NCBI GenBank assembly: GCA_027489065.1
Contig: JAIYAM010000026.1
Coordinates: forward strand, 70 to 64,069
Origin: Erythrobacteraceae bacterium
GTDB lineage: Bacteria > Pseudomonadota > Alphaproteobacteria > Sphingomonadales > Sphingomonadaceae
DNA: 64,000 nucleotides
Reading direction: 5' to 3'
Both the position numbers and the translations under genes were made by a program. Under the pieces are notes generated by a model. It was not told the origin of the DNA. It did not search any database and saw only the letters and a program-made list of their open reading frames with translations. Shown piece by piece: positions 1,747-35,949 of this stretch (position 1 is its first letter; each line of letters opens with the position of its first letter).

Positions 1747-3207
1747 TCAAATGTACTTGCGATAGTCTGTGCTTTCGACCTGACCTTCTTTCATGTATTT
1801 TAGAATTTCGCCCACCATTCGTGCGGCCCGGATTGGGATAGGTAGGCGCTGGTTCATTTGGGTCGAATTCCAATTGATCTTGGTGAGGGAGAAAACCTCC
1901 TCTGCCAGCTGAGCGACGGTGCTGTCACAGGTCGGATGGGGACAGAGCAGCAGCGGACGCGGGTCGTACATGCCAGGATAAGTCCCATAATAGGGCATGC
2001 TGCCGTTCGTGTAGAGAAGTCCGTTACCGCCTAGGTCGATGAACGTGCCACGCAGAACCGGGTAGTTCCCGTCACGGAGCAGCTTCACCGAGTACGATTC
2101 CTGGACCCAGACCAAGTCACGCATTTCGGTGCCGGCAGCTTCCAGAGCCTCAAGAATGCCGTCGGCCTCTTCGTCCTTGAAGCGCGACGTCTTCAGCACG
2201 ATCACACGGGCAGGAAGTGTCTTGTGGTGCGTTTTGTAAGCGGCAAGCACGTTCTCAACAATCTCGCGGGCGTCTTCGCGCGTCATGTAAGGGTGGCGGC
2301 CACGACTCTCGGTATGGGCGCGCTTGCCTTTAAGCACGAAGCCGCGCCCGCGTTCGTCAAACATCTGGGCGGCGCTGGTGAAGAGCTGCTGACCGCCAGC
2401 TTCGCGATAGAAACTGATGCCGATGTAGCAGGCGGTGTAATCTCCTTCCTTTGGCAGGCGCCGCCAGGGAATACGGCCGCTCCCCTTGTAGTAGAGCGTG
2501 GTCAGAAGGTTCCAACTGCGGCCAGCTACGTCTTGGATCTTGCGGGCGCTGCTTTCCTTGATTTTCTGGGGAATTGAAACTTTGTCGTCGACCGTATCCT
2601 CCCAGACGATCTGGATCGGAAAGGTGAGATGCATTGCGCGAGCCTTCAGCATGCCGCGGAAGTTCGGAGCGTCGGAGCCGCTGCTGTCGTCTTTCTCAAT
2701 TGTCCCGCCAGCGTCGACCTTCGCGTTCCAGACGCGCTCGAGTAGTCGCACTGGCAGTGCAACGATCGCCACATCAGGGCGGTTGCCACCATCAGCTAGG
2801 GACTCCAGCTCTGCGACGATCTCGTCCACCGCCATCTCGACGGCCTTCTGATGGTCAGGCTCTTTTGCAATCTTGTCGAGCTTGCTCTGCGATAGCACGG
2901 CGGTGGCGCCGTCCTCGATATCGAAGCGGCAGCGGTAGGGGCTTTGATTGCCCAGGCCCGGGAACGCAGGATGCATGTTCGGGTGCTTTTCCGACTTGCC
3001 ATCGACGCCACTCGCCGCTGCATCCAAAAATTTCCGGGTGTCCTCTATTGTCTTGGCGCTGCCTACTACGCCGATCTTGATCACGTCCCCGACGAACGGC
3101 TGAAGAGGGCCTGCCTCGAACAGCCCTAAACGGGGATCCGGATGGTGATGGTGGTCCCCAAACTCCAGCTCGGGTTCTTTGAACACGCGGGTTTCAAAGT
3201 TGGTCAC
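1747..3207 (-). CDS. ago: Short prokaryotic Argonaute (MID-PIWI), catalytically inactive type
   Basis: 486 aa. N-terminal EPELEFG, MID motifs ([16 protein letters not shown]), PIWI region CYIGISFY / VIVLKTSRF / LTKINWN and C-terminal DYRKYI. The catalytic Asp positions appear substituted (GIS, KT). GTG start overlaps the upstream stop (GTGA). Confidence 0.9.
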
Positions 3208-4538
3208 GCGAATAGCCCACCTTGCTGATCGTCTGGGTCAGCTTTCTTCTTGCCTCCTCCCCATCCATCCTCTGGCACCCGGGTTTCGAGCTCGACGGTC
3301 GGTGGCTCGCCAAAACGAAGTCTTGGTTCTGTATCTACCTCCGAGCCGAACAGGTCGCCTGCGGTGCTGTCGGCATCGCGATCGGCTTGGGTTAGAAAGC
3401 GGTGCCACATAATTACCTGGCCTCTCAGCGCAGCGCTTTTGTCGAGGCGTTTTTTGCCCGCTAGTAAGGCTCCGGGATGCGAATGAGGGGTAAATCCATT
3501 TGTTGTGAAATAGTATGTGGGCGAGATGATCAAATACCAACGGTCGCCCAGGCGCTCGAAGCGCGGCGAGAAGGCATGGTGCCGAACGAACGAGACCTTG
3601 CCCTCCTCCTTGTCGCTCATCGCGACCATGACCACGTCAGCGTCGGTTTTCTTCTTGGCAGATTCGTAAGCGAAGTTGCGCGACGCATCCTTCTCCAGTG
3701 CACGGAAATATAGGATCTTTCTGTCCTTACTCCAATTCAGGTCCTCGCGCGTCTGGTGCCGGAGCGTCTGGCGCAGCAGGTGCATGAACCGGTTCTGCTC
3801 GTCGATATCATCATGGAAGGCCAAGTCTTCCGTGTCGATTGCGTCGACTAGGTCCAGATCCACGATCTGGTTACAAGCTGAGGTGCGTGGATCGTGGAAG
3901 GACCAGAACGTTCCGCCTGCAATCGACCAATCGAAGCGGGGCGTCTCTTCGCCGTCAAGGAGGACTGCAGTCGCACGCCGACCATCGTACGGCGTCGAGG
4001 CTATGAAGATTTCCTTGGGGAGTTCGATCGGCAGTATGTTGACCAGTGCTTCTTCGCCGCCGCCGAGTGCAGGGACATAGTAGCCGAAACCCGCCTTTGG
4101 CACGGTGAGCCCGGCGAGCCGATTGATGCTGGTGTTGTCGAGTACGTCGGCACTCTTATCAATTTGCAGGCGCCGCTCCGCCTGGTCGTTATCCCGCGAC
4201 ACCTCCTTCCAATAGAAGCTGTTGTCGGACTTCCGGTAGAAGACGACTATCACCGGTAGGTTTGACCCCTTCCAGTAATCCAGGTCTTGCTGACGAAGCA
4301 GATAAGCGAACCCGTCATCGGTCTCCGAGGCGTAGCGCCCATCTTCTTTGGCCTTTACCTGGACCGCGATCATTCGGGCCATAGGCTGACCCTTTTCCAT
4401 CACCTCGGCAATCCCGTCGATGCCAGCCTCGAGTCTTGAGCGGCCGTCGAACTGGAAGCCCATCGAGAGGAATCGACCGCGGACTGCGTTCTCGCCGATC
4501 TCGCCAAGAATTTGGTTGGGAGTTAGGTGCTTAGGCAT
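3204..4538 (-). CDS. DUF4365-type nuclease-APAZ fusion, partner of the short pAgo (SPARDA-type system)
   Basis: N-terminus GEIGENAV...[10 protein letters not shown]...IAVQVKA is a PD-(D/E)XK Mrr/DUF4365-like motif. The ~290-aa C-terminal region is translationally coupled to a short pAgo, the arrangement expected of an APAZ partner. Confidence 0.85.
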
Positions 4539-4858: not shown

Positions 4859-7138
4859 TCAACTGCCCCTGAGTGATCCGAACATCTCTGAGATGCTTCG
4901 ATCACCATACCGCTCCATACGCGACCGCTCTTTCCATTCATCCTGCATGTGATCGGCGTACCGATCTTCGTCCTCTTCGAACTCTGCGTTTGCCTCCTCG
5001 ACACGCTGGATCATTGAGTTGACGTCGACGCCGAGCTCACTGCGGAAAAATTCTAGGTCCTCGATAAGACCAGAAAACTGCTCCCGTGATCGGCATTCTC
5101 TAAGTTCATCAGAAAAGTACCGCCGCCGATACGTGTCGAAGCTTTCTATGGCGATCGTTGCCTCATGCCCCCCCTCGCATATTTCAACGACGCACAGAAG
5201 CTCCCGCAGTTCGTCCGATCGGCAGCCAGTCCGCGCCTCTTCCAAGACTGCGTCAAGTACTGCCTTTCGCATCTGACTAATGCCGTCAGCGGGCAGCGAA
5301 ACCGCGGCGTCTAGCGCACGGATGAGCTCAACCGCATCATTAATCTCTGGCCGCACCGCGTCCCATTCCTCGATCAGCCGCGCATAAGCCGGTGTGATCA
5401 GCGCAACGATTTCAGACGTACCGAGCCGCTGGGACATCTCGACGATGATCGCGAGACGTTGTTCAAATGTCGGACCGTAGTAAGCGGTGCCGCCACCCTC
5501 CATGGTGATCCGACGACGTTGGCGTGCCGACCGGGCAATCGATGGCGCGATCCGCTGTGAATCGCGTTTCAGCGCGGCCAAGATTTTCCCGCCCTGCTCG
5601 GCTTTTGCTAAGCTCCAAATTTGCTCGATCTGCTCAAAGCGTGCCGCTCCCTCGATCATGTCGACGGCGTTGTCCGGCGCGCCGCGCGCGACGGCATTGA
5701 GCAGATCGAGCACGGAAGGATCGATAACCTCGAACCCCTCCTGACCCCAGGGCTTGATGAAGCTATTCACCACTTCGCGGATGCCAGCTCTGAGATCGTC
5801 GGGCCGTGTCGAGAAGTTGTAACGCGCGGCGCGATGCGCGTGGAGCGGCCCGAAGGCGTCTTCCAGCACGCGCCCACCACATTTACCGCCGAGAGTGCGC
5901 ATGGCGAGCAGCACCGAGCGGCCCGCGTCGGAGATTTCCTGCTCATAGGCGTGGCGCCAAATTTCGGATGGATCGCACAGGAGATTATCGACGAAGCCGC
6001 GATAGCTGTTGACCGGGACCTGCTTCAGTCGGCGGTAGGATGACAGCCACTCGATTAGGCGCGGATTGAACTTCTTATGCTTGACGATCCGCATGTAGAA
6101 TTCACCGCGCAATAGCTCGTCGCGATAAACGTCGGGCAGGTCGCTGAAGTAAAGGTGGTTGTAGAGGATGCGGGCACGCTGCATCGTCGTGTAGCTCGGC
6201 ATGTTCAACATGACACGCAGATCATCCAGCCCGGCATGGCGAAGTCGTTCGGAGCGGCCAAGCGCTTGGGCGAAGACATGCTCGCGGGTGGTCAGCACAA
6301 GTCGCGCGTCGGGCGTCGCCCTGACCATCGCAATAAAGTTGAGCAGCGCGCGGTCGTTGGAGCCGTGAACGCGGTCCCCGGCGAAAGTCGCACCCATGAA
6401 GTCATCAAAATAGAAAATCTGCCGTAAGCCAGGCTGGAATAGCTTTTCGCCCTCCTCGACGTCGCGCTGGATTAGGACGGCCTGATACCCCTGCTCGAGG
6501 TGCGCGTAGAGCAGCAGATCTGCGAGCGTCGTCTTGCCGACGCCCGGCGGTCCTGCAATGATAACGACCCGTTGATCCGCAAGCATCTGCAAAGCTTTAG
6601 GATAGACATCACTCGCTACATACCGGCGCGCCTGCTCAAAGACTTGGCGCGCCTTGAACTCGCTGCGGGTCAGCGCCGCGTTGTGTATGACCCGGTCAAG
6701 GACGCCTCGGCTTGCCAGCCAAAGCTTATAGTGGCGGCCCTCTACATCGGAATGCTGGCCGATCAGGTTATTGAGGTCTTCCGCTCCGAGGATATCCTGA
6801 GGTTGCAGATACTCTTTGCCGATGATCCCGGCGATTGCGTCCTTATTTGTCGGAGACAAAGGAACCGAGGTAACAAGGATGTACCGCGAGGGAGCCAGAT
6901 TGCGAACCTTTACCGCCTCTAGCTCTAAATCGCGCATCAGGCCCTTGAGACCAGTTCGAAGGTAATGCTTTACCTGTATGATCGTCTTTGATGGCCCAAC
7001 AGCATGACGGAGATCTATGCCGCCGTCTTGGCCTGACTTGAAACTTTCGATGTGGACGCCCCAATGCGCCTGCAGCAAGTCGCGAGTAAGAACCTCCAAA
7101 TCGTCCGGAGATAGTTGGTGAAAGTCATACTCGGGCAT
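4859..7138 (-). CDS. Mrr-like restriction endonuclease domain fused to a STAND-class (nSTAND3-like) NTPase
   Basis: N-terminal LEVLTRDLL...GQDGGIDL...IIQVKHY (Mrr_cat pattern), Walker A GPPGVGKTT, Walker B YFDDFMG, sensor LVLTTRE, helical C-terminus; 759 aa. Confidence 0.75.
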   Translation of the reverse strand: MPEYDFHQLSPDDLEVLTRDLLQAHWGVHIESFKSGQDGGIDLRHAVGPSKTIIQVKHYLRTGLKGLMRDLELEAVKVRNLAPSRYILVTSVPLSPTNKDAIAGIIGKEYLQPQDILGAEDLNNLIGQHSDVEGRHYKLWLASRGVLDRVIHNAALTRSEFKARQVFEQARRYVASDVYPKALQMLADQRVVIIAGPPGVGKTTLADLLLYAHLEQGYQAVLIQRDVEEGEKLFQPGLRQIFYFDDFMGATFAGDRVHGSNDRALLNFIAMVRATPDARLVLTTREHVFAQALGRSERLRHAGLDDLRVMLNMPSYTTMQRARILYNHLYFSDLPDVYRDELLRGEFYMRIVKHKKFNPRLIEWLSSYRRLKQVPVNSYRGFVDNLLCDPSEIWRHAYEQEISDAGRSVLLAMRTLGGKCGGRVLEDAFGPLHAHRAARYNFSTRPDDLRAGIREVVNSFIKPWGQEGFEVIDPSVLDLLNAVARGAPDNAVDMIEGAARFEQIEQIWSLAKAEQGGKILAALKRDSQRIAPSIARSARQRRRITMEGGGTAYYGPTFEQRLAIIVEMSQRLGTSEIVALITPAYARLIEEWDAVRPEINDAVELIRALDAAVSLPADGISQMRKAVLDAVLEEARTGCRSDELRELLCVVEICEGGHEATIAIESFDTYRRRYFSDELRECRSREQFSGLIEDLEFFRSELGVDVNSMIQRVEEANAEFEEDEDRYADHMQDEWKERSRMERYGDRSISEMFGSLRGS

Positions 7139-7288: not shown

Positions 7289-8782
7289 CTAGGGATTTTT
7301 CGCCGGCCTACCTTGCTTGCGCTCCCGCGCATCGCGAGCGCGGTCTGGGTCCTCCTTTGACGGCACAGATTCGACATAGCGGCTGACATAGTCAGGTGGC
7401 AGATTATGCTCGGCGCAGCCCGCGACGACAAAATCTTTGTACCAATCGTAGGGCAACAGACTGTCGTCGATGGCATCTGCAGTCGCAAGATACGTCAGGA
7501 CCTTGGACCGCCGCCCCTGAGCGTTGATCACCGTGACCGTTGCGTGCTCATATCCGTTCCCAAGGCCCTCGGCTTTATCAAGCGCAGGACGTTCGGCGGG
7601 ATCAAAGCGGAACAGGACACCGATCACCTGTTGGTCGTCGTTCGTCGCGAAGGCATTGCATTTGCCGGACTTGTCCTTGCTGCGTTTGTGGAACCGCAAA
7701 GCATGGCCCGGTAGGACTGCCATGCCGAGCGGTTCGCAACTCGGCATGCGCGCGCGCAGCCTTTGTGTCGACATGTTCGACCCGTATGCGAAATAGACGG
7801 AATGCTCCGGCGGGCCGATTTCCATGTCAGTCAAAGGTGCAGCTGCCGTTTCGCCCGGCTTGATGATCGTGCGTAGCGGTACCGACATTATGCTGTGCTC
7901 ATCCGTTGGCTCGCCTTCTCGAACGAGAATCGACAACTCACTCTCTTTGTCAAACACAGCCACAGGCCTGCCCTCCCAACCACACTCGGGACAAACAGGC
8001 TGCTCCCACACCATTCCTGGGGTTGCACTGAACTCGCCATGCTCCGGTTCAAGATCCGGCGATCCGCAGGAGGGGCATTCCTCGGGCACACCGCGCAGTG
8101 ACCGCAGGATTTGTGTCATTGCAATGTTCACCGCTTGCTGAGCCAATGAATGCGCCATGTCGGCGTCCAGCCAAGCTGCCGACTTGGCGTGAGTCAGCCA
8201 GTTGTTGAACGTCCAAGCGATTTCAAGCGTTTGCTTGATTGCGCTGCGTCTCTCTTTGTTCGTTTCCCGCGGCAGGAGATCGTTGAAGATGATGTCAACC
8301 CAAGCACGAAAATTCGCGCGTTGCGGCGGCGTGTCCGTCCAGACTGCTGCATCCTGCGTCACTCCAATAATGCTGAGCAATGTCTCGCGACAGCGGACGC
8401 CGATCGCCTGATAATCTGACACGCTTCGGGCCTGTGCGAGAGCCTTACTGACGGCTTCCATTTGCTCCATGACCGGCGCGAAAGGGAGAACCCGGATGTC
8501 CTGCTTCTGTTGGTCCTGCGTGCGCGGGATACGCAGCATCAGGCCAATATGAAAGGTGAGCGCCAGATCCATATTCGGGAACTGCGCCTGCGAATAGAGA
8601 TTAGTGCCTCCGGTGATAACCCACCACCGATCCTTATTGGTATGGACATCCCAAACATGATGGCGCGTATTCAGTATGGCATCGGAGTAAACCTTCTGGA
8701 GGAAGGTCACCTCAAGGTCGGGAGCTTGCCACTCGAAGTACTCACGGACATGCTCGGTCTCTGCTTCGCTCGCCCTTAGCAC
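7289..8782 (-). CDS. Multidomain protein: uncharacterised N-terminal domain, helical domain, Zn ribbon and C-terminal gamma-glutamylcyclotransferase (GGCT/AIG2-like) domain
   Basis: GTG start with GGAGG RBS. Zn knuckles CPSCGS and CPECGW. GGCT motifs YFAYGSNM and LDKAEG-GYE in the last ~170 aa. Confidence 0.75.
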   Translation of the reverse strand: MLRASEAETEHVREYFEWQAPDLEVTFLQKVYSDAILNTRHHVWDVHTNKDRWWVITGGTNLYSQAQFPNMDLALTFHIGLMLRIPRTQDQQKQDIRVLPFAPVMEQMEAVSKALAQARSVSDYQAIGVRCRETLLSIIGVTQDAAVWTDTPPQRANFRAWVDIIFNDLLPRETNKERRSAIKQTLEIAWTFNNWLTHAKSAAWLDADMAHSLAQQAVNIAMTQILRSLRGVPEECPSCGSPDLEPEHGEFSATPGMVWEQPVCPECGWEGRPVAVFDKESELSILVREGEPTDEHSIMSVPLRTIIKPGETAAAPLTDMEIGPPEHSVYFAYGSNMSTQRLRARMPSCEPLGMAVLPGHALRFHKRSKDKSGKCNAFATNDDQQVIGVLFRFDPAERPALDKAEGLGNGYEHATVTVINAQGRRSKVLTYLATADAIDDSLLPYDWYKDFVVAGCAEHNLPPDYVSRYVESVPSKEDPDRARDARERKQGRPAKNP

Positions 8783-8908: not shown

Positions 8909-9364
8909 ATGGAACAATCGATCCAAGCAATCTGGAATCAGGACGAAATCCCGGTCGTTCTGCGACGCACGGGGAAAGGCGAACTCCTGCGTGTGCGCTT
9001 GCCGTTCAGTAGCGACAACCGCCAGTGGTTGCAGAATGCTCGCCGCACGACGCCTGCTTGGATCGCATCGCGCAAATTCTGGGAAATACCTAAAGCGTGG
9101 TTCGACGACTTCGTGAATCGCGCGCTGCAGAGATATGGCCGCCTCTACGTGATCCAGCCTTATCGCGAACAGGAGATATGCTCACCGTCCTGCCAGAATG
9201 CCAAGGGGCATGAGTGCCAATGTTCCTGTATGGGCGTCCATCACGGGACCGGGGGGGATGGTAGCTGGTTTGAGGTGTCGGATGCCTTTTCGACCCGCTG
9301 GGGGGAACGGATGCTTGCCTGTCGCCTAATGGTTGCCAAGGTTCCGCCACGCTCTGAGCTTTAG
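8909..9364 (+). CDS. Small hypothetical protein with a Cys/His-rich putative metal-binding C-terminus
   Basis: ATG at 8909 (ORF track starts at TTG 8882). Motif CSPSCQNAKGHECQCSCMGVHHG. Divergent from the GGCT fusion gene. Confidence 0.6.
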   Translation: MEQSIQAIWNQDEIPVVLRRTGKGELLRVRLPFSSDNRQWLQNARRTTPAWIASRKFWEIPKAWFDDFVNRALQRYGRLYVIQPYREQEICSPSCQNAKGHECQCSCMGVHHGTGGDGSWFEVSDAFSTRWGERMLACRLMVAKVPPRSEL

Positions 9365-9468: not shown

Positions 9469-12400
9469 GTGCAAATCATTGATAACATCAACGTGTTGCT
9501 CGGGGACGAGCTCAAGAAAGACATCAAGCGCGGTCAGCGGCTCCGCATTGCTGCGTCGAGCTTCTCCATTTTCGCGTTCGAGGCTCTGCGCAAGGAGCTT
9601 CAGCATATCGAAGAGCTGCAATTTCTGTTCACCGAGCAGACGTTCACTGCTGAGCGTGCGACAGACGGGAAGACGCGTGAGCGCCGCGAGTTCTTCATCC
9701 CCAAATCCAAAAGGGTTGCCGGTCTCTCCGGGTCGGAGTTCGAGATCCAGCTCCGCAACCGACTGACCCAGCGGGCGATCGCGCGCGAGTGCGCTGAATG
9801 GATCCGCAAGAAGGCGCGCTTCAAATCCAATGCGTCCTCGGCCCCAATGCAGCAGTTTCTCTCGGTCGACGGAGCGCCGGCCAGCGTCGCCTACATGCCG
9901 CTGTCTGGCTTCACGGCAGTCGACTTGGGCTATGCTCAGGGCAACGCCGTATCCAATTTCGTGAATCGCTTCGACGAGGCGATGCACACCCAGAGCTACA
10001 TCCAGCTCTTCGACACCATCTGGTCCGACCCGTCGCGCGTGGAAGACGTTACCGACGCGATATGCGACCACATCGCCTCGGTCTATCGGGAGAATTCCCC
10101 CGAGCGCGTCTATTTCATCATGCTCTACAATATCTTCCACGCATTTCTGGAGGATATCGACGAGGACGTGCTGCCCAATGACCGGACGGGCTATCAGGAG
10201 AGCCTCGTCTGGCAGAAGCTGTTCAACTACCAGCGTGATGCTGCAACCGGGATCATCAACAAGCTCGAGACCTTCAACGGCTGCATCCTGGCGGACAGCG
10301 TCGGGTTGGGGAAGACGTTCACCGCCCTGGCGGTGATCAAGTACTACGAGCTGCGCAACCGCTCGGTCCTAGTGCTGTGTCCGAAGAAGCTGACCGATAA
10401 CTGGCTGAACTATAACACCAACCTGAAAACCAATCCGTTCGCCCGGGATCGGTTCAATTATGACGTCCTGTGCCACACGGACCTGTCTCGCACCTCGGGC
10501 TCATCGAACGGCATTCCGCTCAACCGGGTGAACTGGGGCAACTACGATCTCGTGGTGATCGACGAGTCCCACAACTTCCGGAACAACGATGCCTTCAAGG
10601 AGAAGGAGACCCGCTACCAGAAGCTCATGAATCAGGTCATCCGGGCCGGCGTGAAGACGAAAGTGCTGATGCTGTCTGCGACACCCGTGAACAACCGATT
10701 CAATGATCTGCGCAACCAGCTGGCCCTAGCCTACGAAGGCCACTCCGACACGCTGTCGGAGAAGCTGAACACCACCGCCAGCGTCGAGGAGATCTTCCGC
10801 CGGGCGCAGGCTGCCTTCAATCGCTGGTCCAAACTCCCGCCCGAGCAAAGGACTGCGGAGACGATCCTGACCGAACTCGATTTCGATTTCTTCGAGCTGC
10901 TCGACAGCGTGACGATCGCCCGGTCGCGCAAGCATATCACTACTTTCTACGACATGACCGACATCGGCCATTTCCCGCAGCGCCTGAAGCCGTTGTCCTT
11001 CAGGCCGCCGCTCACCGATGTTCCGGGCGCGATGGATCTCAACGAGATCGTGGCGCAGCTGACGCTGCTCAAGCTCTCGGTCTACGCGCCAACCAGCTAC
11101 ATCCTGCCGAGCCGCCTCGCCAAGTATGAGGCGCTCTACGACACGGACGTCTCGAGCGGTGGTGGGAAACTGCGGCAAGCCGACCGCGACAAGAGCCTGC
11201 AGGCCCTGATGACGGTCAACCTGCTGAAGCGCCTTGAAAGCTCAATCCACGCATTCCGGCTGACCTTGGGCTCATTGGCTGACAACATTCGCAAGACGCT
11301 GGAGGTGGTTGAGGACTACCGCTCTGGCCGCGGCGCCAGTTCTATCGTCGACTATGCTGACGACATCGAAACACTCGAGGCCGAAGATGATGAGCTGGAG
11401 GGTTTCGGGGCCTACCGTGTCGGCGGCAAGGTCCGGATCGATCTTGCGGACATGGACGTGCCCGGCTTCGCACATGATCTTGAAGCAGATCTCGCCCTGA
11501 TCGATGCCCTTCTGGGTGAGATGACCCGCATCACGCCTGACCATGACAAGAAGCTTCAGCATCTGAAGAGCCTGATCGGCGAGAAGCTGGACCGGCCGAT
11601 CAACCCAGGCAACCCCAAGGTGATCATCTTCACCGCCTTCGCTGACACGGCGCACTACCTCTATGACCAGATCGCGGCAGAGATGCTTACCCAGCACCGC
11701 CTTCACACCGGGCGCGTGACCGGATCGGACGCCCCCAAATCCACGCTCGGGAAGGGGCATGACTTCCAGACGCTGCTGACTCTGTTCTCGCCGCGCTCAA
11801 AGGAGAAGGCGGCAATCATGCCCGATGAGCCGGGTGAGATCGACATTCTGATCGCCACCGACTGCATCTCGGAAGGCCAGAACCTCCAGGACTGCGACTT
11901 CCTGGTGAACTACGACATTCACTGGAACCCCGTCCGGATCATTCAACGGTTTGGGCGGATCGACCGCATTGGCTCTCCCAATGCGCAGATCCAGCTGGCG
12001 AACTATTGGCCGGACATCACTCTCGACGATTACATCAAGCTCAAGGAGCGCGTGGAAAACCGGATGATCATCGCCGACGTTACCGCGACCGGCGATGACA
12101 ATGTGCTGACCGCCAAAGCCAGCGACACTGCCTATCGCCGCGAACAGCTGCGCCGGCTGCAGGAAGAGGTCATCGAGCTCGAGGATGTCCGTACCGGCAT
12201 TTCGATCACGGATCTGGGGCTGAACGATTTCCGCATGGACCTGCTCAACTACGTGAAAGAGCATGGGGACCTCGCATCGACACCCAAGGGGCTTCATGCC
12301 GTGGTCCCGGCTGAACCCGCCAAGGGCCTGGAGCCGGGCATTATCTTCGCTTTAAAGGCCGTAGGGGGAGATGCCTCGACCAACCGGCAGAACCGCCTGC

Positions 12401-12756
12401 ATCCCTACTATCTGATCTACATGGGCAATGATGGGAGCGTCGTCGCCGATCAGACCCAAGTGAAGCGCCTGCTCGATCTGGTGCGGACTGCGGCCAAAGG
12501 CGTGACAGCCCCGGTTCCGCCAGCATTCCGGCCCTTCAATGCCCGAACGGCAGACGGGCAGGATATGAGCGGGCCCTCCCAGCTGCTCAACGCCGCAATC
12601 CGCGCCATGATTGACGCCAAGGAGGAGCGGGATCTCGACAGCCTGTTCTCGGCCGGCGCCACCACTGCGCTCTCCCACACCATCCGCGGTCTTGAGGACT
12701 TTGAACTGATCGCCTTCGTCGTTGTGGAGCAGGCAGAGGCCGGAGCTGCTGCGTGA
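9469..12756 (+). CDS. SNF2-family helicase associated with type III R-M; N-terminal degenerate PLD-like domain
   Basis: ADSVGLGKT (motif I), IDESHNFRN (II), MLSATPVNN (III), ISEGQNLQ (V), WNPVRIIQRFGRIDR (VI); 1095 aa. Confidence 0.9.
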   Translation: MQIIDNINVLLGDELKKDIKRGQRLRIAASSFSIFAFEALRKELQHIEELQFLFTEQTFTAERATDGKTRERREFFIPKSKRVAGLSGSEFEIQLRNRLTQRAIARECAEWIRKKARFKSNASSAPMQQFLSVDGAPASVAYMPLSGFTAVDLGYAQGNAVSNFVNRFDEAMHTQSYIQLFDTIWSDPSRVEDVTDAICDHIASVYRENSPERVYFIMLYNIFHAFLEDIDEDVLPNDRTGYQESLVWQKLFNYQRDAATGIINKLETFNGCILADSVGLGKTFTALAVIKYYELRNRSVLVLCPKKLTDNWLNYNTNLKTNPFARDRFNYDVLCHTDLSRTSGSSNGIPLNRVNWGNYDLVVIDESHNFRNNDAFKEKETRYQKLMNQVIRAGVKTKVLMLSATPVNNRFNDLRNQLALAYEGHSDTLSEKLNTTASVEEIFRRAQAAFNRWSKLPPEQRTAETILTELDFDFFELLDSVTIARSRKHITTFYDMTDIGHFPQRLKPLSFRPPLTDVPGAMDLNEIVAQLTLLKLSVYAPTSYILPSRLAKYEALYDTDVSSGGGKLRQADRDKSLQALMTVNLLKRLESSIHAFRLTLGSLADNIRKTLEVVEDYRSGRGASSIVDYADDIETLEAEDDELEGFGAYRVGGKVRIDLADMDVPGFAHDLEADLALIDALLGEMTRITPDHDKKLQHLKSLIGEKLDRPINPGNPKVIIFTAFADTAHYLYDQIAAEMLTQHRLHTGRVTGSDAPKSTLGKGHDFQTLLTLFSPRSKEKAAIMPDEPGEIDILIATDCISEGQNLQDCDFLVNYDIHWNPVRIIQRFGRIDRIGSPNAQIQLANYWPDITLDDYIKLKERVENRMIIADVTATGDDNVLTAKASDTAYRREQLRRLQEEVIELEDVRTGISITDLGLNDFRMDLLNYVKEHGDLASTPKGLHAVVPAEPAKGLEPGIIFALKAVGGDASTNRQNRLHPYYLIYMGNDGSVVADQTQVKRLLDLVRTAAKGVTAPVPPAFRPFNARTADGQDMSGPSQLLNAAIRAMIDAKEERDLDSLFSAGATTALSHTIRGLEDFELIAFVVVEQAEAGAAA

Positions 12757-13412
12757 CCCTCTATGCGTGGCCGCCGCGAACGGCATTTGGACGCGCGATC
12801 CCGAAGAGCCGGATATACGGCGCCGCGCAGGTTCCGCGCGCGATGCAGGCCAAATTCGTCGATCAGGTCGAGCGCATGGAGTGGACCCACGTGCTTCGCG
12901 CGGATCGGTTAAACCTACGTCCGTCGGCAGACGTCGAGGAGATAGCCGTTATTGCGATCGACCTGCATACGCCGGACGTCGAACCGGCAGTCCTGGTGGC
13001 GATCGAGAAGGCCATTCCGCGGCCTCTGATCCTCGAACTCAACCATGCCGGGCGCACTCGGATGGCAATGGCGTGGAAGCGCCCAAGCCAGGCGGAGGCG
13101 GGCAAGTGGGTCACCGCAACGCACGCCTTCACCGCTTGGGAAGCGGGGGACGCACCGCGTCAGGCTCTGCCCACCGCGCTGGACATGGGCACGCTCTATG
13201 CACGGCTGCTCGAGCCTCTGCTACCGCCTAAGCGAAGCGACGACGAGCCGATTGCAGCGCGTGTCGCCCGGGCGGAAGAGGCCGCACAGATTGAGCGTGA
13301 GATCACGCGCCTTGAAAATGCTCTGGCGAGGGAAAAGCAGTTCAACCGGAAGGTTGAGGTTAACGCGGCGCTTCGTGCGGCGAAAGCGAAGCTCGACGCG
13401 CTGCGAACCTGA
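12753..13412 (+). CDS. DUF4391-family protein
   Basis: GTGA overlap with the helicase. TAFGRAIPKS-type N-terminus and coiled C-terminus REKQFNRKVEVNAALR, typical of the gene between SNF2 helicase and mod. Confidence 0.8.
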   Translation: MTLYAWPPRTAFGRAIPKSRIYGAAQVPRAMQAKFVDQVERMEWTHVLRADRLNLRPSADVEEIAVIAIDLHTPDVEPAVLVAIEKAIPRPLILELNHAGRTRMAMAWKRPSQAEAGKWVTATHAFTAWEAGDAPRQALPTALDMGTLYARLLEPLLPPKRSDDEPIAARVARAEEAAQIEREITRLENALAREKQFNRKVEVNAALRAAKAKLDALRT

Positions 13413-13427
13413 CCGTCGCGGTAAATG

Positions 13428-13455
13428 TTGCGTTTTTTCGTAAATTGTGTATAAT
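13428..13455 (+). promoter_or_regulatory. Near-consensus sigma70 promoter
   Basis: TTGCGT-N16-TATAAT in an AT-rich patch immediately after the DUF4391 stop. Confidence 0.6.
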
Positions 13456-13460
13456 TGAAC

Positions 13461-13577
13461 CCAACATCTTCCACTTCGGGGGTTGGAGTCGGTTCGAATC
13501 CGGCGGCTGCACTAGTCCTGATTGCCCTTCTTTCAATCTTTCGCTTCCTCGGAAGCAAGTTTTTTAAGGAGAAGGCT
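13461..13577 (+). ncRNA. Candidate structured RNA leader or small RNA with cUUCGg hairpin, tRNA T-arm-like hairpin and anti-SD segment
   Basis: CCAA/TTGG-closed hairpin with C-TTCG-G loop (13461-13486); GTCGG-TTCGAAT-CCGGC (13488-13504); GCTTCC/GGAAGC hairpin followed by T6 (13543-13565); TTGCCCTTCT (13522-13531) is complementary to the SD/start region. Confidence 0.4.
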
Positions 13578-13730
13578 ATGGGCAAAAAACTGAAGAATTC
13601 TATTTCGAAAGTCCATGTAGTTAACCGTTGCTGTGCAAATCTGGTCAAGTTCGTCCCTCATTTCATCGAGACTGTGTGGGCGGTTGGGGCTGGTGTAGCC
13701 GCATCGGTGGTATCCACCTCCACCCATTGA
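13578..13730 (+). CDS. Small 50-aa ORF with hydrophobic C-terminal segment
   Basis: Strong SD AAGGAGAAGG 2 nt before the ATG. MGKKLKNSISKVHVVNRCCANLVKFVPHFIETVWAVGAGVAASVVSTSTH. A terminator-like hairpin overlaps the stop. Confidence 0.45.
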   Translation: MGKKLKNSISKVHVVNRCCANLVKFVPHFIETVWAVGAGVAASVVSTSTH

Positions 13731-13763
13731 GCGGGCAGCCCAACAGCTGCCCGCTCCTCATTT
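13729..13763 (+). terminator. Intrinsic terminator-like hairpin
   Basis: Perfect 11-bp stem GAGCGGGCAGC-ccaaca-GCTGCCCGCTC followed by CTCATTT (short U tract). Confidence 0.55.
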
Positions 13764-13823
13764 GCCCATCAAGTGCCGCTGTCTGTTCGACAAAAGCTGT
13801 CGTGGCCGCTAGGAATTCGGGCC

Positions 13824-15920
13824 ATGGACAAGATGAAAATGCACAGCCCGGACCTGTCTCAGGACAACGTTGCCAAGATCCGCGCCCTTTTCCCTGATTG
13901 CGTGACAGAGGCCGCCGACGAGCAGGGCAACATCCGGCTCGCCGTTGACTTCGACCAGCTGCGCCAGACGCTTTCGGATCATATCGTCGAAGGGCCGCAG
14001 GAGCGTTATCGGCTCGACTGGCCCGGCAAGCGCGAGGCGCTTCTCACTGCCAATGCTCCGATCGCCAAGACCCTCCGCCCCTGCCGCGAGGAGAGCGTGG
14101 ACTTCGACACCACCCAGAACCTCTTCATCGAAGGCGACAACCTCGATGCGCTGAAGCTCCTTCAGGAAAGCTATCTTGGTAAGGTAAAGCTGATCTACAT
14201 CGATCCGCCCTATAACACCGGCAAAGACTTCATTTATCGAGATAAGTTTTCGTCTTTGAAGGCCCAGTATGAGAATCTTACTGAGCAGCGCGACGCCGAC
14301 GGCGGTCTGCTGGTAGCTAATCCTGAAACCAAGGGTCGGTACCATTCCGACTGGCTCACTATGATCTACTCTCGCCTGAAGGTTGCGAGAAACCTGCTAG
14401 CAGAGGACGGTCTGATCTTCATCAGTATCGACGATGTGGAACAGGCTGCCCTGAAGCAGATCTGTGCAGAAATATTCGGTGAGAAGAACTTTATTGCCCA
14501 GCTGACTTGGGAAAAGGGTCGAAAGAACGACGCGAAATTCTTTTCACTCGGCCATGAGTACATGCTTGTGTATGCACGCAATCAGCTAGTGCTGCGTGAG
14601 CGAGGCGAAATTTGGCGCGAAGAAAAGCCTGGCGCTAAAGAAATTTGGGATGAATTCGTACGCCTGCGCAGCATATACGCTGACAATTTCGGTCAAATGG
14701 AAAAGGCCTTGTCGGAGTGGTACTCCGATTTACCGAAGTCTCACCCATCGAAAAAGTGGTCGCGGTATAAGCGCATCGACAAGAATGGACCTTGGCGAGA
14801 CCGCGACATCTCATGGCCGGGCGGTGATGGCCCTAAGTACGATGTGATCCACCCTGTCACAAAGCTGCCTTGTGCAGTTCCCGAGGCTGGATGGCGTTAT
14901 GCTTCGCCCGATGAGATGCAGCGGCAGATCAAGCTTGGACTGGTAGAATTTCGCGCTGACCACACCGAGCCGCCCTTCCGCAAAGCCCATATTCGTCCGA
15001 TCCCCGAGGAGTGTGACGACATCAACGAAGGTGATGAAGGTGAGGGCGGTGAAGAAGGGGAGTCTGAATTCGCCACTCAGGTCCGAGCGTCAGTGATTTA
15101 CAAGCAGTCCCAAGTTGCGGTTAAATATTTGCGGGGTCTGATGGGTGGCAAAGTTTTTAGCAACCCAAAAGATCACGATGAACTTGCTAAAATTTTTGCT
15201 TACGCTACGCCGCGCAACCCGAACGCAATCATCATGGATTTCTTCGCGGGCTCAGGGAGCGCAGCCGAAGCAGTTTTGACCGCGAATGCGACCGCTGGTA
15301 CCAGTTACAAATTCGTGGTGGTACAGTTGCCTGAAGACCTTGATAAGGCCGCTGCGGCAACGTCGGGCACAGCCAAGAAGACGGTGCAAAACGCCATCAA
15401 ATTGCTCGACAAGTTGGGTAGGCCGCACCTGCTTTCCGAAGTGACTAAAGAGCGCATTCGCCTCGCGGGCATGGAAGCCTTGAAGGGGGATGTCAGTGAG
15501 GGCTGGAACCGAGACGTCGGTTTTCGCGTGCTGAAGATCGACAGCTCTAACATGAGCGACGTCTACTACCGTCCCGACGAGGTGAGTCAGGACGAACTCT
15601 TTGGGCAAGTCGACAGCGTGAAGCCGGATCGCACCGGCGAGGATCTGCTGTTTCAGGTGCTGATCGACTGGGGCGTAGAGTTGACCCTGCCGATCGACCG
15701 CGAAACCCTGCACGGCAAGACCGTTTATTCGGTGGACGGTAATGCGTTGATCGCCTGTGTCGACACCGGCGTCACCGATGAGTTGGTGAAGGAGATCGCC
15801 GCTCGCGCGCCACTGCGTGCCGTGTTCCGCGACACCAGCTTTGCCCGCGATGCCGATCGCATCAACGCCGAGCAGCTCTTCCGCCAGCTCTCGCCGGGCA
15901 CCGAACTGAAGGCCATCTGA
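13824..15920 (+). CDS. mod: Type III R-M DNA methyltransferase (Mod; N6-adenine, beta class)
   Basis: ATG 13824 MDKMKMHSPDL. IYIDPPYNTG catalytic motif precedes the IIMDFFAGSGS SAM motif. The central TRD is lower in GC. Confidence 0.95.
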   Translation: MDKMKMHSPDLSQDNVAKIRALFPDCVTEAADEQGNIRLAVDFDQLRQTLSDHIVEGPQERYRLDWPGKREALLTANAPIAKTLRPCREESVDFDTTQNLFIEGDNLDALKLLQESYLGKVKLIYIDPPYNTGKDFIYRDKFSSLKAQYENLTEQRDADGGLLVANPETKGRYHSDWLTMIYSRLKVARNLLAEDGLIFISIDDVEQAALKQICAEIFGEKNFIAQLTWEKGRKNDAKFFSLGHEYMLVYARNQLVLRERGEIWREEKPGAKEIWDEFVRLRSIYADNFGQMEKALSEWYSDLPKSHPSKKWSRYKRIDKNGPWRDRDISWPGGDGPKYDVIHPVTKLPCAVPEAGWRYASPDEMQRQIKLGLVEFRADHTEPPFRKAHIRPIPEECDDINEGDEGEGGEEGESEFATQVRASVIYKQSQVAVKYLRGLMGGKVFSNPKDHDELAKIFAYATPRNPNAIIMDFFAGSGSAAEAVLTANATAGTSYKFVVVQLPEDLDKAAAATSGTAKKTVQNAIKLLDKLGRPHLLSEVTKERIRLAGMEALKGDVSEGWNRDVGFRVLKIDSSNMSDVYYRPDEVSQDELFGQVDSVKPDRTGEDLLFQVLIDWGVELTLPIDRETLHGKTVYSVDGNALIACVDTGVTDELVKEIAARAPLRAVFRDTSFARDADRINAEQLFRQLSPGTELKAI

Positions 15921-15923
15921 CCG

Positions 15924-17594
15924 ATGGATCAGGCCGCGCTCACTTCTCTGCTCGCCCAGCTTATCGCCCATTGGGAGGATGAGGTGGTGGAGTTCAAGCG
16001 CGGTAAAGACAGCTATTCCGTGAGCGACCTGGGCAAATATCTCTCGGCCCTGGCCAATGAGGCGAACCTGCGCGGCAAGGATCGCGCATGGATCGTGTTC
16101 GGGGTCGATAACAAAACCCGCCAGGTGGTGGGTACAACCTACAAAGAAAGTTCCGAGCACCTGCAGGCCACGAAGAAGCAGGTGTTAGACGGAACGAGTA
16201 GCATTACCTTCCGCGACATCCACGAGCTGCTGCATCCCGATGGCCGCGTCATACTGTTCGAAGTGCCGGCAGCGCCGCGGGGCATGCCAATCAATTGGAG
16301 CGGCCACGCTTATGGGCGAGCGGGCGAGAGCCTGACCGCTCTGCCACCAGACAAGCTGGACGAGATCCGCAACCAGACTATCGCAACCGATTGGACGGCG
16401 CAGGTGGTCGAAGGGGCAACGCTGGCCGACCTTGACCCAAAGGCGATCTCTGTCGCGCGAGAACGATTTGCTGAGAAGCATGCACGTCGGGTCTCGTCAG
16501 AAGAAGTGGCAGGCTGGAGTGACGCAACCTTCCTCGACAGAGCGAAAGTTACCCAGAATGGCGCGATAACCCGCGCAGGACTGCTGCTGCTCGGCAAGAT
16601 GGAGGCGGCAGGGAAGCTAAGTCCGCACCCGGCCGAGATCACCTGGAGCCTGCGCGGGGAAGAGCAGGCCTATGAGCATTTCTACCCGCCGTTTTTGCTC
16701 ACATCCTCCGAGGTCTTTGCCCGCATCCGGAACGTGCAGATCCGCATCCTGCCACAGGACCAGCTGCTGGCGCATGAGGTGTCGAAATATGACCAAAGCG
16801 TGGTTCTTGAGGCCCTGCACAACTGCATCGCCCACCAGGACTACACCCGCAACGGCCGTATCGTCGTTACCGAATATCTCGATAGGCTGACTTTCGAGAG
16901 CGAGGGCGGTTTCGTGGATGGCGAGCCCACGGATTATGCCACTGGTGCCCGCTCGACCCCGCGCCGCTATCGTAACAGCTGGCTGGTCCAGGCAATGGCC
17001 GAGCTCAATATGATCGACCAGATGGGGTATGGCATTCAGCGCATCTATGAGGCACAGCGGAGGCGGTTCTTCCCGTTGCCCGATTATGATGTGAAGGATC
17101 CGACCGCGGTCAGCCTGACAATCCATGGCCGCGTGGTCGACCCCGCCTATAGCCGCTTGCTGATGCAGCAGACCGAGCTTGATCTGGTCGATGTCGTCAA
17201 TCTCGATCGGGTGCAGAAGAAGCTGCCCATTACCGACGACGCCATCAAGCACCTGCGCCGCCGGAAGCTCATCGAGGGGCGCAAACCGAACTTCCATGTC
17301 TCAGCGACGGTAGCAGCGGCAACTGCCACGATGGCCGACTATGTCCGCACCCGCGCCCAGGATGATGAGTTCTATGCGAAGCTACTGACCGACTATCTCG
17401 GGGGCGCAGGCCGTGCCACACGTCGGGAGGTCGACCAGCTGTTGCTCGACAAGCTGAGCGACGCCCTCACGCCCGAACAGCGCACCAAGAAGATTGCCAA
17501 CCTGCTTACCAAGCTGCGGCGGCAGGGGGTGATCGTGAACAAGGGTCCGCGGGCGGCGCCGCAATGGATGCTTGCAGAAAGAAATGCGCGATGA
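15924..17594 (+). CDS. Schlafen/AlbA_2 domain protein with HATPase_c_4-like and C-terminal HTH domains
   Basis: EDEVVEFKRG...LSALANEAN...WIVFGVDN (AlbA_2 pattern); EALHNCIAHQDY...SEGGF...RNSWLVQAM-ELNMIDQMGYGI (HATPase_c_4 pattern). Confidence 0.85.
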   Translation: MDQAALTSLLAQLIAHWEDEVVEFKRGKDSYSVSDLGKYLSALANEANLRGKDRAWIVFGVDNKTRQVVGTTYKESSEHLQATKKQVLDGTSSITFRDIHELLHPDGRVILFEVPAAPRGMPINWSGHAYGRAGESLTALPPDKLDEIRNQTIATDWTAQVVEGATLADLDPKAISVARERFAEKHARRVSSEEVAGWSDATFLDRAKVTQNGAITRAGLLLLGKMEAAGKLSPHPAEITWSLRGEEQAYEHFYPPFLLTSSEVFARIRNVQIRILPQDQLLAHEVSKYDQSVVLEALHNCIAHQDYTRNGRIVVTEYLDRLTFESEGGFVDGEPTDYATGARSTPRRYRNSWLVQAMAELNMIDQMGYGIQRIYEAQRRRFFPLPDYDVKDPTAVSLTIHGRVVDPAYSRLLMQQTELDLVDVVNLDRVQKKLPITDDAIKHLRRRKLIEGRKPNFHVSATVAAATATMADYVRTRAQDDEFYAKLLTDYLGGAGRATRREVDQLLLDKLSDALTPEQRTKKIANLLTKLRRQGVIVNKGPRAAPQWMLAERNAR

Positions 17595-17701
17595 TTGCGG
17601 CCTCTTGCAGAAAGGTCGGGCGGATAAGTCCTAGGGATTCCGTCGTTTCCCTCTTTCTGCACAGTGGAAAATTCTCTCTCCAAAGTTATGAATGCAGAAA
17701 G
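17573..17701. repeat. Four copies of TGCAGAAAG (three direct, one inverted)
   Basis: Copies at 17573-17581, 17606-17614 and 17693-17701 (+) and 17653-17661 (-), spanning the end of the Schlafen gene and the gap before res. Confidence 0.8.
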
Positions 17702-17715
17702 GGCCTGCGTCGGCC

Positions 17716-20700: not shown

Positions 20701-20841
20701 GCGCTTCGAGACCTCGAGCGGGCGAAAATCGACTGCGCCAAGAAGTTCTTCGCCAAGCTAGCGGAATCGAACCCGACGCCCAATGTCAGGTACGGGGTAG
20801 CTGATAGCTACAACAAGCTGATGGAAATCGTGACGACTTGA
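17716..20841 (+). CDS. res: Type III restriction endonuclease subunit (Res)
   Basis: ATG 17716 [52 protein letters not shown], and C-terminal nuclease YNPDWAI...VAETKG. Confidence 0.95.
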
Positions 20842-24702: not shown

Positions 24703-25127
24703 ACACCGACATCGTCATCTACCACAATCCTGAATGTGGGACGTCGCGCAACACGCTGGCGATGATCCGCAATGCCGGGATCGAGCCGCATGTAGTGGAA
24801 TACCTGAAAACCCCGCCCTCGCGCCCACTGCTGGAAAGCCTGATTGACCGCGCGGGCATGACGCCCCGTGCCTTGCTGCGCGAGAAGGGCACGCCGTTTG
24901 CGGAGCTCGGCCTGGATGATCCTGCACTGACCGATGCGCAGCTGATCGACGCGATGATGGCCCACCCGATCCTCATCAACCGTCCGCTGGTAGTCTCGCC
25001 GCTGGGAGTGAAGCTGTGCCGCCCATCGGAAGAAGTGCTCGACCTGATCCCTGCCGATCAGCGCGGCGCTTTCACCAAGGAAGACGGCGAACAGGTGGTC
25101 GATGCATCGGGGCAGCGCGTCAAATGA
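24699..25127 (+). CDS. arsC: Arsenate reductase, glutaredoxin-coupled family
   Basis: [26 protein letters not shown]. Confidence 0.93.
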
Positions 25128-26194
25128 CCCAGACCCTCGCCAATCCCGCCCCGGCTGCTTCGCCGCTCGGCACTTTCGAACGCTATCTTTCGGTGTGGGT
25201 GCTGCTCGCCATTCTAGCGGGGCTTGGCCTGGGGCTGGCCGCACCCGATGCGGTCGGGGTGCTCGCAGGGCTTGAATATGCCTCGGTCAATCTCGTGGTC
25301 GCAGTGCTGATCTGGGCGATGATCTTCCCGATGATGGTCGGCGTCGATTTCGGCAGCATCAAGGACATCGGCCGCAAGCCCAAAGGGTTGGTCATCACGC
25401 TAGTGGTGAACTGGTTGGTGAAGCCGTTCACAATGGCAGCGCTAGCGGTGCTGTTCTTCGACTATTTCTACGCCGGATTGATGAGCGAAGGCGATGCCGA
25501 TCAATACATTGCGGGCCTGATACTGCTGGGCACGGCGCCGTGCACGGCGATGGTGTTCGTGTGGTCGCAGATGACCAAGGGCGATCCGGCCTACACGCTG
25601 GTGCAAGTCTCGTTGAACGATCTGGTGATGATCGTTGCCTTTGCGCCGATCGTGGCGTTGCTGCTGGGAGTGACCGACATCGTGGTGCCATGGGATACTT
25701 TGCTGCTGTCGGTGGTGCTTTATGTGGTGGTGCCATTGGTGGCAGGGGCGCTGACCCGTAGCCGGGTAATCGCATCGCATGGCGGTGATGAAGCGGCGGT
25801 CGATGCCTTGACCGGGCGATTGAAGCCGTGGTCGATCATCGGCCTGCTGGCAACAGTGGTGCTGTTGTTTGCATTCCAGGCCGGCACGATCATATCCAAT
25901 CCGCTGCTGATCGTGTTGATCGCGATTCCGATCATCATCCAGTCATACGCCATCTTTGCGGTCGCCTATGCCGCTGCAATGGCGTGGAAGGTGCCGCACA
26001 ATATCGCCGCCCCTTGCGCGCTGATCGGCACATCGAACTTCTTCGAGCTGGCCGTAGCGGTGGCTATCGGTCTGTTCGGCCTCAGCAGCGGGGCGGCTCT
26101 GGCCACTGTTGTCGGCGTGCTGGTCGAAGTGCCGGTGATGCTATCGTTGGTCGCCTTCACCAATCGCACCCGCGACCGATTCCCCGCCGCATGA
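25124..26194 (+). CDS. acr3: Acr3 arsenite efflux transporter
   Basis: [48 protein letters not shown]; ATGA overlap with arsC. Confidence 0.95.
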
Positions 26195-26952: not shown

Positions 26953-26991
26953 CAATCGCGATGGCGCGGACGCCAGCAGCAAGGGGGCTAA

Positions 26992-28509: not shown

Positions 28510-28512
28510 CGC

Positions 28513-28543
28513 TTGACCCTGTAGCTGCTACAGGGTGCATAAG
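28513..28543 (+). promoter_or_regulatory. MerR-type promoter/operator
   Basis: TTGACC-N19-CATAAG with perfect 10-bp inverted repeat ACCCTGTAGC-t-GCTACAGGGT (28516-28536). Confidence 0.8.
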
Positions 28544-35946: not shown

Positions 35947-35949
35947 GGC

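Follow-up and report, generated by a model that had tools for sequence, protein, structure and literature searches.

A gamma-glutamylcyclotransferase domain tethered to an unannotated zinc-ribbon module: a candidate single-gene defence protein from an Erythrobacteraceae bacterium

The gene considered here lies on the minus strand of a 64,000-nucleotide stretch of DNA from an Erythrobacteraceae bacterium (contig JAIYAM010000026.1, positions 70 to 64,069; the whole stretch is called the window below), and encodes a protein of 497 residues in which a C-terminal gamma-glutamylcyclotransferase (GGCT) domain is joined by an acidic linker to a head of 288 residues, which we refer to as the N-module. 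We put this protein forward as a candidate single-gene sensor-effector defence protein that would combine an unprecedented effector chemistry with a head module that has so far gone unannotated. In the reading that we favour, and that seems to us about evenly balanced between right and wrong, it is a self-contained and mobile conflict system of one gene, most probably for anti-phage defence by abortive infection, which acts by destruction of a gamma-glutamyl metabolite. The anti-phage effectors described so far act on nucleic acids, which they cut, on membranes, which they break, or on NAD+, ATP or dNTPs, which they deplete, and to our knowledge none targets gamma-glutamyl or thiol metabolism; neither PADLOC v2 nor the literature that we searched contains a defence system with a GGCT effector. 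If the protein does act in phage defence, it would add a new metabolic target to bacterial immunity, give a function to a large family of unannotated N-modules, and account for the repeated finding of GGCT-fold genes on the phage as well as the host side of their conflict.

The original prediction for this gene, which was made from the letters of the DNA and did not give the strand, described a fusion protein with a series of motifs, and all of them are found in a single minus-strand open reading frame: WDVHT..RWWVIT..TNLY..FP..D..L.FHIGLM at residues 44-82, NNWLTHAK at 193-200, the CPxC knuckles C236-P-S-C239 and C264-P-E-C267, and LDKAEG at 401-406; YFAYGSN lies at 330-336. In the alignment, the three closest homologues have an ATG exactly where the window gene has its GTG start codon, and full-length homologues, which are about 496 residues long, cover 98-100% of the window protein. 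An AlphaFold2 model built on an alignment of 131 homologues has a mean predicted local distance difference test score (pLDDT) of 83.8, and residues 1-290 modelled alone reach 88.2, with a predicted template-modelling (TM) score of 0.71. The gene and the parts of its product are as follows.

7289..8782, minus strand: whole coding sequence, 497 amino acids and a stop codon, with a GTG start at 8782 and GGAGG ahead of the start
8528..8782, minus strand: N-terminal alpha/beta domain, residues 1-85, predicted as a helix, a four-stranded meander and a second helix (AlphaFold2 pLDDT mostly >90)
8093..8518, minus strand: predicted five-helix domain, residues 89-230, with the NWLTH motif (AlphaFold2 model and conservation)
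7943..8086, minus strand: zinc ribbon, residues 233-280, with two CPxC knuckles followed by the invariant W269 (sequence motifs and conservation)
7817..7918, minus strand: acidic, disordered linker, residues 289-322 (pLDDT <50)
7307..7816, minus strand: GGCT/AIG2 domain, residues 323-492 (Pfam, phmmer, Foldseek and conservation)
7775-7786, minus strand: YGSN motif within the GGCT domain
7568-7570, minus strand: GAG codon of Glu405, the predicted catalytic glutamate

That the C-terminal part is a GGCT domain with a putative catalytic glutamate in LDKAEG, as had been proposed, is borne out by profile, alignment and fold alike. It scores 42 bits with PF13772 (AIG2_2) and 39 bits with PF06094 (GGACT), where the curated gathering thresholds are 27 and 22.8, and phmmer matches it to human gamma-glutamyl cyclotransferase (GGCT/C7orf24) with an E-value of 1.3e-10, such that the YFAYGSN of the window protein aligns with a YFAYGSN in the human enzyme and E405 aligns with the glutamate of the human LDEQEG motif, the catalytic Glu98. 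The domain is modelled at a pLDDT of about 87-93 with the beta-barrel fold of GGCT, and the structures at the top of the Foldseek search are those of human GGCT (3cry and 2rbh; E 2e-10, target TM score 0.81, root-mean-square deviation about 2 Å), with Bacillus subtilis YkqA as the next match. Among 49 aligned full-length homologues of the fusion, E405 and G334 are each present in 48, and Y330, F331, A332, Y333, S335 and N336 in all; the YGSN motif and the catalytic glutamate are both found in 112 of 121 homologues. Conservation of E405 and YFAYGSN in the homologues shows that selection keeps the enzyme working, and from its sequence and model the domain looks catalytically competent.

The window domain therefore shares with human GGCT the fold, the YGSN motif and a glutamate in the equivalent position, but it differs from the human enzyme in three respects. 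The first is its setting, as the C-terminal third of a 497-residue protein in which it is tethered to a 288-residue unannotated module. The second is a pair of invariant motifs of its own clade, HKxSxDxSGKCN (residues 365-376) and PYxWYK (444-449), in which H365, K366, D370, S372, K374, C375, N376, P444, Y445, W447, Y448 and K449 are invariant and have no human counterpart. Finally, the window family sits in defence islands and on mobile elements rather than in a gamma-glutamyl cycle.

Source databases label the homologues plainly as gamma-glutamylcyclotransferase or ChaC. The superfold and the chemistry are indeed common to ChaC proteins and the window GGCT domain, but we reject membership of the ChaC family: the ChaC Pfam profile PF04752 has no match in the window protein at E <= 0.01, and only 5 of 130 relatives reach an E-value of about 0.03 with it, while in Foldseek the ChaC2 and yeast ChaC structures fall below GGCT and YkqA (target TM scores of 0.51-0.60, root-mean-square deviations of 5-6 Å). 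GGACT structures are also far behind human GGCT, with target TM scores of 0.5-0.6. The closeness to canonical GGCT, set against the weaker likeness to ChaC and the missing Pfam match, does not support the original idea that the protein depletes glutathione. Canonical GGCT enzymes act on gamma-glutamyl amino acids, including gamma-Glu-Cys, and not on glutathione, and cyclotransferase chemistry requires a gamma-glutamyl group with a free alpha-amine. Because the fold is nearest to that of canonical GGCT, a collapse of the thiol pool would more likely proceed through gamma-Glu-Cys, or through a futile cycle with GshA, than through ChaC-like cleavage of glutathione.

Residues 1-288 are a previously unannotated family that, judging by sequence motifs and the model, is built of three parts: an alpha/beta domain, a helical domain and a Cys4 zinc ribbon. 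Pfam, NCBIfam and PADLOC hold no match to these residues, PHROGs matched only the C-terminal GGCT domain, and Foldseek searches of the PDB and BFVD with the N-module returned nothing at E <= 0.001. When 1.84 billion representative proteins were searched exhaustively, the matches fell into two independent sets, one to residues 2-310 only, made up of proteins of 270-340 residues plus a few longer ones, and the other to residues 325-490 only, made up of proteins of 160-200 residues plus longer fusions. A profile of the N-module recovers a family of at least 2,656 clusters (clustered at 90% identity), nearly all of them proteins of 266-364 residues without a Pfam domain, and spanning Proteobacteria, Actinobacteria and other phyla. 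Many of the invariant residues are polar (N61, Y63, H78, Q125, R132, R179, T197 and H198, with R84 near-invariant); the others are W54, G80, G128 and W190 and, in the zinc ribbon, C236, P237, C239, C264, C267 and W269. This ribbon is modelled by AlphaFold2 as three-stranded (about residues 245-278), and weak matches to zinc-ribbon Pfam families occur across the family, with the TFIIB type in 32 of 130 members. Beyond it, the acidic stretch spans about residues 279-322, of which 289-322 are predicted to be disordered. The closest relatives without an effector also keep the first part of the linker, DEHSIMSVPLRTIIKPG, at their C-terminus.

It had also been suggested that the helical domain may be HEPN/Abi_C-like. 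We do not file the N-module under HEPN because the motif, Pfam and hhalign tests were all negative. No Pfam family of the HEPN clan matches any of 130 N-module members even at E <= 1, and the relaxed scan yields zinc-ribbon families only; the catalytic Rx4-6H motif, which HEPN proteins have where the last core helix starts, was not found, as the family consensus is LVNWLTH, with H198 invariant and no arginine four to six residues ahead of it; and hhalign assigns a probability of 0.1% to a DUF4145-GGCT protein and of 3.4% to an Abi_C protein, single-sequence targets that make this a weak test. The hints from the fold are weak: the HEPN structures 4nqf, 7bxo, 2hsb, 8xeh and 2q00 match the helical domain with Foldseek probabilities of 0.85-0.97, E-values of 0.1-0.3 and target TM scores of 0.4-0.6, and cytochrome b562 bundles score equally well. 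The HEPN/Abi_C identity is thus not supported.

Both halves of the window protein are found in other company. In the relatives P0163 and P0171, a stretch of about 230 residues behind the N-module resembles HNH endonucleases, with matches in PHROGs at E 1.9e-8 to 9e-5 for P0163, the one that was tested, and both proteins carry a SEC-C motif at the C-terminal end; in P0213 and P0180, additional N-terminal regions lie ahead of the N-module. A caspase-like extension in P0213 (residues 1-248) was considered when SGHG...DSCYSG, reminiscent of the His-Cys dyad of caspase/CHAT proteins, was seen by eye, and was dropped as neither Pfam nor a PDB sequence search gave it support. The GGCT clade, at about 50% identity, stands downstream of HEPN_RES_NTD1 and RES domains in P0148 and P0151, is joined to a DUF4145 domain in P0267, where an Rx6H motif is visible, and to a nucleoside deoxyribosyltransferase-like domain in P0183, lies behind a hydrophobic, membrane-like N-terminal region (judged by eye from the sequence) in P0178, and is also found in tandem. 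Because RES is an NAD+-degrading toxin, its recurrent fusion to the clade fits a logic in which a central metabolite is depleted.

The separation can go as far as different genes. On a Rhizobium ruizarguesonis plasmid, a 610-residue DUF6119 protein is followed, after a gap of 15 nucleotides, by a GGCT protein of 184 residues that shares 38% identity with the domain of the window protein; DUF3800, a pair of a Gabija-like AAA ATPase and UvrD, and Shedu belong to the same island, and it is possible that the DUF6119 and GGCT pair is a two-gene version of a GGCT-effector system. The chromosome of Agrobacterium tumefaciens encodes a 199-residue GGCT protein that is 64% identical to residues 289-475, with the linker kept and the N-module absent, and that is preceded on the same strand by open reading frames of 255 and 162 residues without a Pfam or PHROGs match; these may represent a different head module that is split in two. 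Conflict systems are typically recognised by such an exchange of heads and tails (PMC3710099). As in the AbiJ-NTD- and HEPN/RES-NTD1-headed single-polypeptide defence and abortive-infection proteins catalogued by Anantharaman et al. (2013; PMC3710099), one head here is found with alternative effectors (GGCT or HNH) and GGCT with alternative heads (RES, DUF4145), and the genes likewise stand alone in defence islands; the difference is that the window head matches no catalogued N-terminal domain in Pfam, PADLOC, the PDB or BFVD.

The same comparison bears on an alternative that we regard as unlikely, in which the N-module itself is the working part, as a non-canonical HEPN-like RNase, a nucleic-acid binder or a stoichiometric inhibitor, and the GGCT or HNH domain an optional add-on; the gene would still be one of defence or conflict. 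Most of the N-module clusters are proteins of 270-340 residues without an extra domain, yet they occur in defence islands and on small plasmids, and both the many invariant polar residues and the weak resemblance in fold to HEPN bundles point in the same direction. The failure of every motif and profile test for HEPN described above speaks against this alternative, however, and in the fusions purifying selection clearly acts on the active site of the GGCT domain, which is therefore not a passenger. That GGCT and HNH interchange at one C-terminal position is, moreover, the usual pattern of effectors.

For the reading in which the N-module senses and the GGCT domain acts, the genomic company of the homologues is another line of evidence. 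When the four neighbours on either side of 51 full-length homologues were clustered, no conserved partner gene emerged: the largest neighbour cluster is present in 7 of the 51 loci, at varying positions. A type II toxin-antitoxin pair was rejected on the same count, there being no conserved adjacent partner. The first and second neighbours on each side, 141 non-redundant proteins from 50 loci, match 202 PADLOC families at E <= 1e-10, whereas a control set of 138 genes, picked at random from 14 further contigs of the genome to which the window belongs and called by the same script, matches 7, all of them generic (cysteine desulfurase-like SspA/DndA, mad2/3 and RtcR). Two caveats apply: the control is a single genome, and a count of families exaggerates the difference, since any one defence protein can match several related models. 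Strong matches among the neighbours include GajA (4e-244), DRT UG20 (1e-233), LmuB (5e-168) and Dsr2 (6e-144), with further ones to LmuC, AriA, DRT UG21, AbiEi and RT-TIR, and their Pfam domains include those of integrases, coupling proteins, conjugation genes, reverse transcriptases and ABC-3C components. The prospect that homologues would turn out to sit mainly in housekeeping contexts, named at the outset as what would speak against a defence gene, has not materialised: they adjoin Gabija, Qat, Shedu, Lamassu, DRT, TIR and SIR2 genes, and the random-gene control is nearly empty.

Individual loci illustrate how variable this company is. The three closest (75% identity) keep only a divergent gene of 150 residues, to which we return below, and otherwise differ in their defence systems: the Sphingobium locus has a Gabija-type OLD ATPase with a UvrD helicase and a SIR2 protein, and the loci of Novosphingobium and of one metagenome-assembled genome have a TIR protein and QatABCD. 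A copy on a Rhizobium plasmid adjoins Shedu, transposases and integrases, and one on a Nitratireductor plasmid is truncated by IS21 amid toxin-antitoxin pairs and transfer genes. On an Agrobacterium plasmid, a gene with the N-module only has Qat to one side and a Gabija-like pair to the other; further genes of this kind are found beside a restriction enzyme, next to Abi_C and HNH genes, and as one of ten genes, together with HigBA, on a Paracoccus plasmid of 5.85 kb. Stand-alone GGCT genes lie beside a Cap4 nuclease, RT-SLATT_5 and AbiTii in Agrobacterium, and between QatABCD and a pPIWI-associated nuclease (pP_pnuc_1) in Devosia.

The full-length fusion family comprises at least 731 clusters that are 65-97% identical to the window protein, with hosts in the Hyphomicrobiales, Sphingomonadales, Caulobacterales and Rhodospirillales. 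Copies in Paraburkholderia and Burkholderia are 65-66% identical, about equal to those of the Hyphomicrobiales, and of 36 genomes of other species of the window's own genus just one has the fusion (65% identity). Elsewhere in the order, two genomes that belong to a different family have matches to the GGCT domain only. The gene occurs on conjugative plasmids, and many other copies are chromosomal. Because of its patchy presence, its plasmid copies and its sharing between Alpha- and Betaproteobacteria at about 65% identity, we consider it an accessory gene that moves horizontally. Phage records are nearly devoid of the fusion, with matches to the GGCT domain only, and the N-module is found in only 13 of 2.9 million viral contigs of IMG/VR.

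Mobility of this kind could also serve the element rather than the host. In an addiction or stabilisation function resembling that of toxin-antitoxin systems, or an exclusion function, of plasmids and integrative elements, the N-module would be a built-in antitoxin and the GGCT domain a toxin fired upon loss of the element or entry of a competitor. The homologues on conjugative and mobilisable plasmids near toxin-antitoxin pairs and transfer genes would fit, as would the N-module-only gene that shares its small Paracoccus plasmid with HigBA. We nevertheless consider this distinctly unlikely: it is hard to see how one stable polypeptide would register the loss of an element, no gene for a labile partner is present, the neighbours are mainly bona fide anti-phage systems, and the chromosomal copies are numerous.

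An ordinary accessory metabolic enzyme, a regulated GGCT for salvage of gamma-glutamyl peptides or production of 5-oxoproline that lies in variable regions only as it is non-essential, is in our estimation very unlikely. It would account for a GGCT fold and catalytic residues that are those of metabolic enzymes, for the labels given by databases, and for metabolic or transport neighbours at some loci. It does not sit well with an N-module that carries an HNH nuclease in other proteins, with a GGCT clade fused to the conflict domains RES and DUF4145, with the contrast in PADLOC matches between neighbours and control, or with the patchy distribution and transfer across classes; nor is any glutathione or gamma-glutamyl-cycle gene linked to the family in any inspected locus.

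How might a defence protein of the favoured kind operate? In the model that we infer for its sensing, substrate, outcome and role in defence, the N-module would hold the GGCT domain inactive and would respond to a cue of infection, perhaps a phage protein or a nucleic acid, with the flexible tether of about 35 residues allowing the one to control the other. Once released, the GGCT domain would act on a gamma-glutamyl amide whose alpha-amino group is free, and turn it into 5-oxoproline and an amine; gamma-glutamyl-cysteine or other gamma-glutamyl amino acids would be the likely substrates, and glutathione itself a less probable one. Drainage of the thiol and gamma-glutamyl pool could then arrest the infected cell or the replication of the phage. 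The proposed outcome, depletion of a central metabolite, is the same as for the metabolite-depleting immune effectors such as SIR2 and TIR NADases and dNTP-depleting enzymes. What survives of the original proposal is thus the candidate defence gene, which the defence-gene context, the patchy and mobile distribution and the active-looking GGCT domain favour, and not its glutathione target. It is tempting to go further and to see here a new immune effector chemistry, in which the GGCT domain, upon sensing of phage, collapses the gamma-glutamyl-cysteine/glutathione pool or strips a gamma-glutamyl mark from a specific target, driven by a widespread sensor module that also drives HNH nucleases, with GGCT reused by RES-, DUF4145- and DUF6119-linked systems; this extended proposal we offer tentatively, as something that could well prove wrong. 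As the system would consist of a single gene with a catalytic knockout of one residue (E405), the idea is directly testable.

Several observations count against the picture of a GGCT-effector defence protein. The association with defence genes is strong but not universal: four short-chain dehydrogenases (adh_short) and other ordinary metabolic genes are among the immediate neighbours, and the copy in Bradyrhizobium japonicum sits between a nucleoside transporter and ogt/groESL. The window protein itself matches none of the families of PADLOC-DB v2.0 at E <= 0.01, and we found no paper in the literature searched that links GGCT, AIG2 or cyclotransferases to phage defence or conflict systems, the apparent matches being an accession number and a metabolic gene of a virus. 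The most serious objection is that the majority of N-module proteins lack any effector domain, so that the N-module may itself be what acts, rather than a sensor. The clade motifs HKxSxDxSGKCN and PYxWYK are without a counterpart in human GGCT, and because of such clade-specific residues the real substrate may differ entirely from that of the human enzyme. Laboratory bacteria deficient in glutathione are viable, and for that reason drainage of the pool is not clearly able to stop a phage.

A counter-defence or signal-erasing role, in which the GGCT domain removes a gamma-glutamyl-type modification placed by phages or other elements on a macromolecule or small signal and no pool is depleted, could draw on the GGCT genes that phages carry (PHROG 2520; Bacillus phage G) and on the clade-specific conserved residues, which suggest a specialised substrate, but it is purely speculative and highly improbable, as no amidoligase is seen in any inspected locus and the need for a gamma-glutamyl group with a free alpha-amino group restricts the macromolecular targets.

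In the window itself, the claim that the gene for the GGCT fusion is embedded among defence genes is confirmed, with defence groups on both sides of it.

1747-4538, minus strand: short pAgo (PADLOC pAgo_I, E 4e-173) and its DUF4365 REase-APAZ partner (Aga_REase-PNTD1-PNTD2, E 1e-174)
4859-7138, minus strand: PDC-S73, 759 amino acids, with an Mrr-like nuclease and an nSTAND3 NTPase; a PADLOC candidate single-gene system, matched over its full length (E 5e-146)
8912..9364, plus strand: gene for a Cys-rich protein of 150 amino acids, divergent from the GGCT fusion gene
9469-20841, plus strand: five-gene cluster of an SNF2 helicase, DUF4391, a type III methyltransferase, a Schlafen/AlbA_2 protein and a type III Res protein

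The short pAgo gene overlaps that of its REase-APAZ partner by 4 nucleotides, and the pair is a SPARDA-type short pAgo system. The PDC-S73 gene lies 150 nucleotides downstream of the GGCT fusion gene; an operon of the two was considered and rejected, as no homologous locus keeps PDC-S73 as a neighbour. On the other side, the SNF2-type helicase corresponds to the PADLOC family C3a139 HKD+Snf2-like (E 6e-125), the type III methyltransferase is matched at E 2e-215, the Schlafen/AlbA_2 protein also carries HATPase_c_4, and the type III restriction endonuclease scores 355 bits with NF012027, below the cut-off of 564 bits.

The divergent gene for the Cys-rich protein, which has no match in Pfam, NCBIfam, PADLOC or PHROGs, is 84-87% identical in the three closest loci, and was for a time a candidate functional partner. 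By tblastn it is present in 45 plasmid records, at 50-70% identity on alphaproteobacterial plasmids and more distantly in the rest, and in three plasmid loci that were inspected it lies beside CBASS (two) or a SIR2/DUF87/SbcCD-like cluster (one) without a GGCT gene, which led us to reject the partnership. It heads different operons, of SNF2 and restriction-modification genes in the window and of Gabija in Sphingobium, and distant relatives of its product in Streptomyces are annotated as 'endonuclease domain-containing'. Because it is found beside other defence cargo where no GGCT gene is present, we read it as probably a hotspot or backbone gene that flanks variable defence cargo.

Some further features of these regions deserve mention. 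Just downstream of the pAgo pair, a minus-strand open reading frame of 460 residues (43-1425) has no family match. A pair of SNF2 and methylase genes similar to that of the window flanks the stand-alone GGCT gene in Agrobacterium. On Agrobacterium and Bosea plasmids, a block consisting of a site-specific integrase, DUF3800 and an RHE_PE00001 family protein recurs at the edge of the defence cargo, possibly as the mark of an integrative element that carries defence genes from place to place. Beyond the defence block of the window, positions 25016-42455 hold cargo of a resistance type, namely a transporter of the ACR3/SBF family, a P-type ATPase and two RND efflux pumps, the latter with membrane-fusion and outer-membrane components. 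Such cargo fits a mobile or variable region of large extent.

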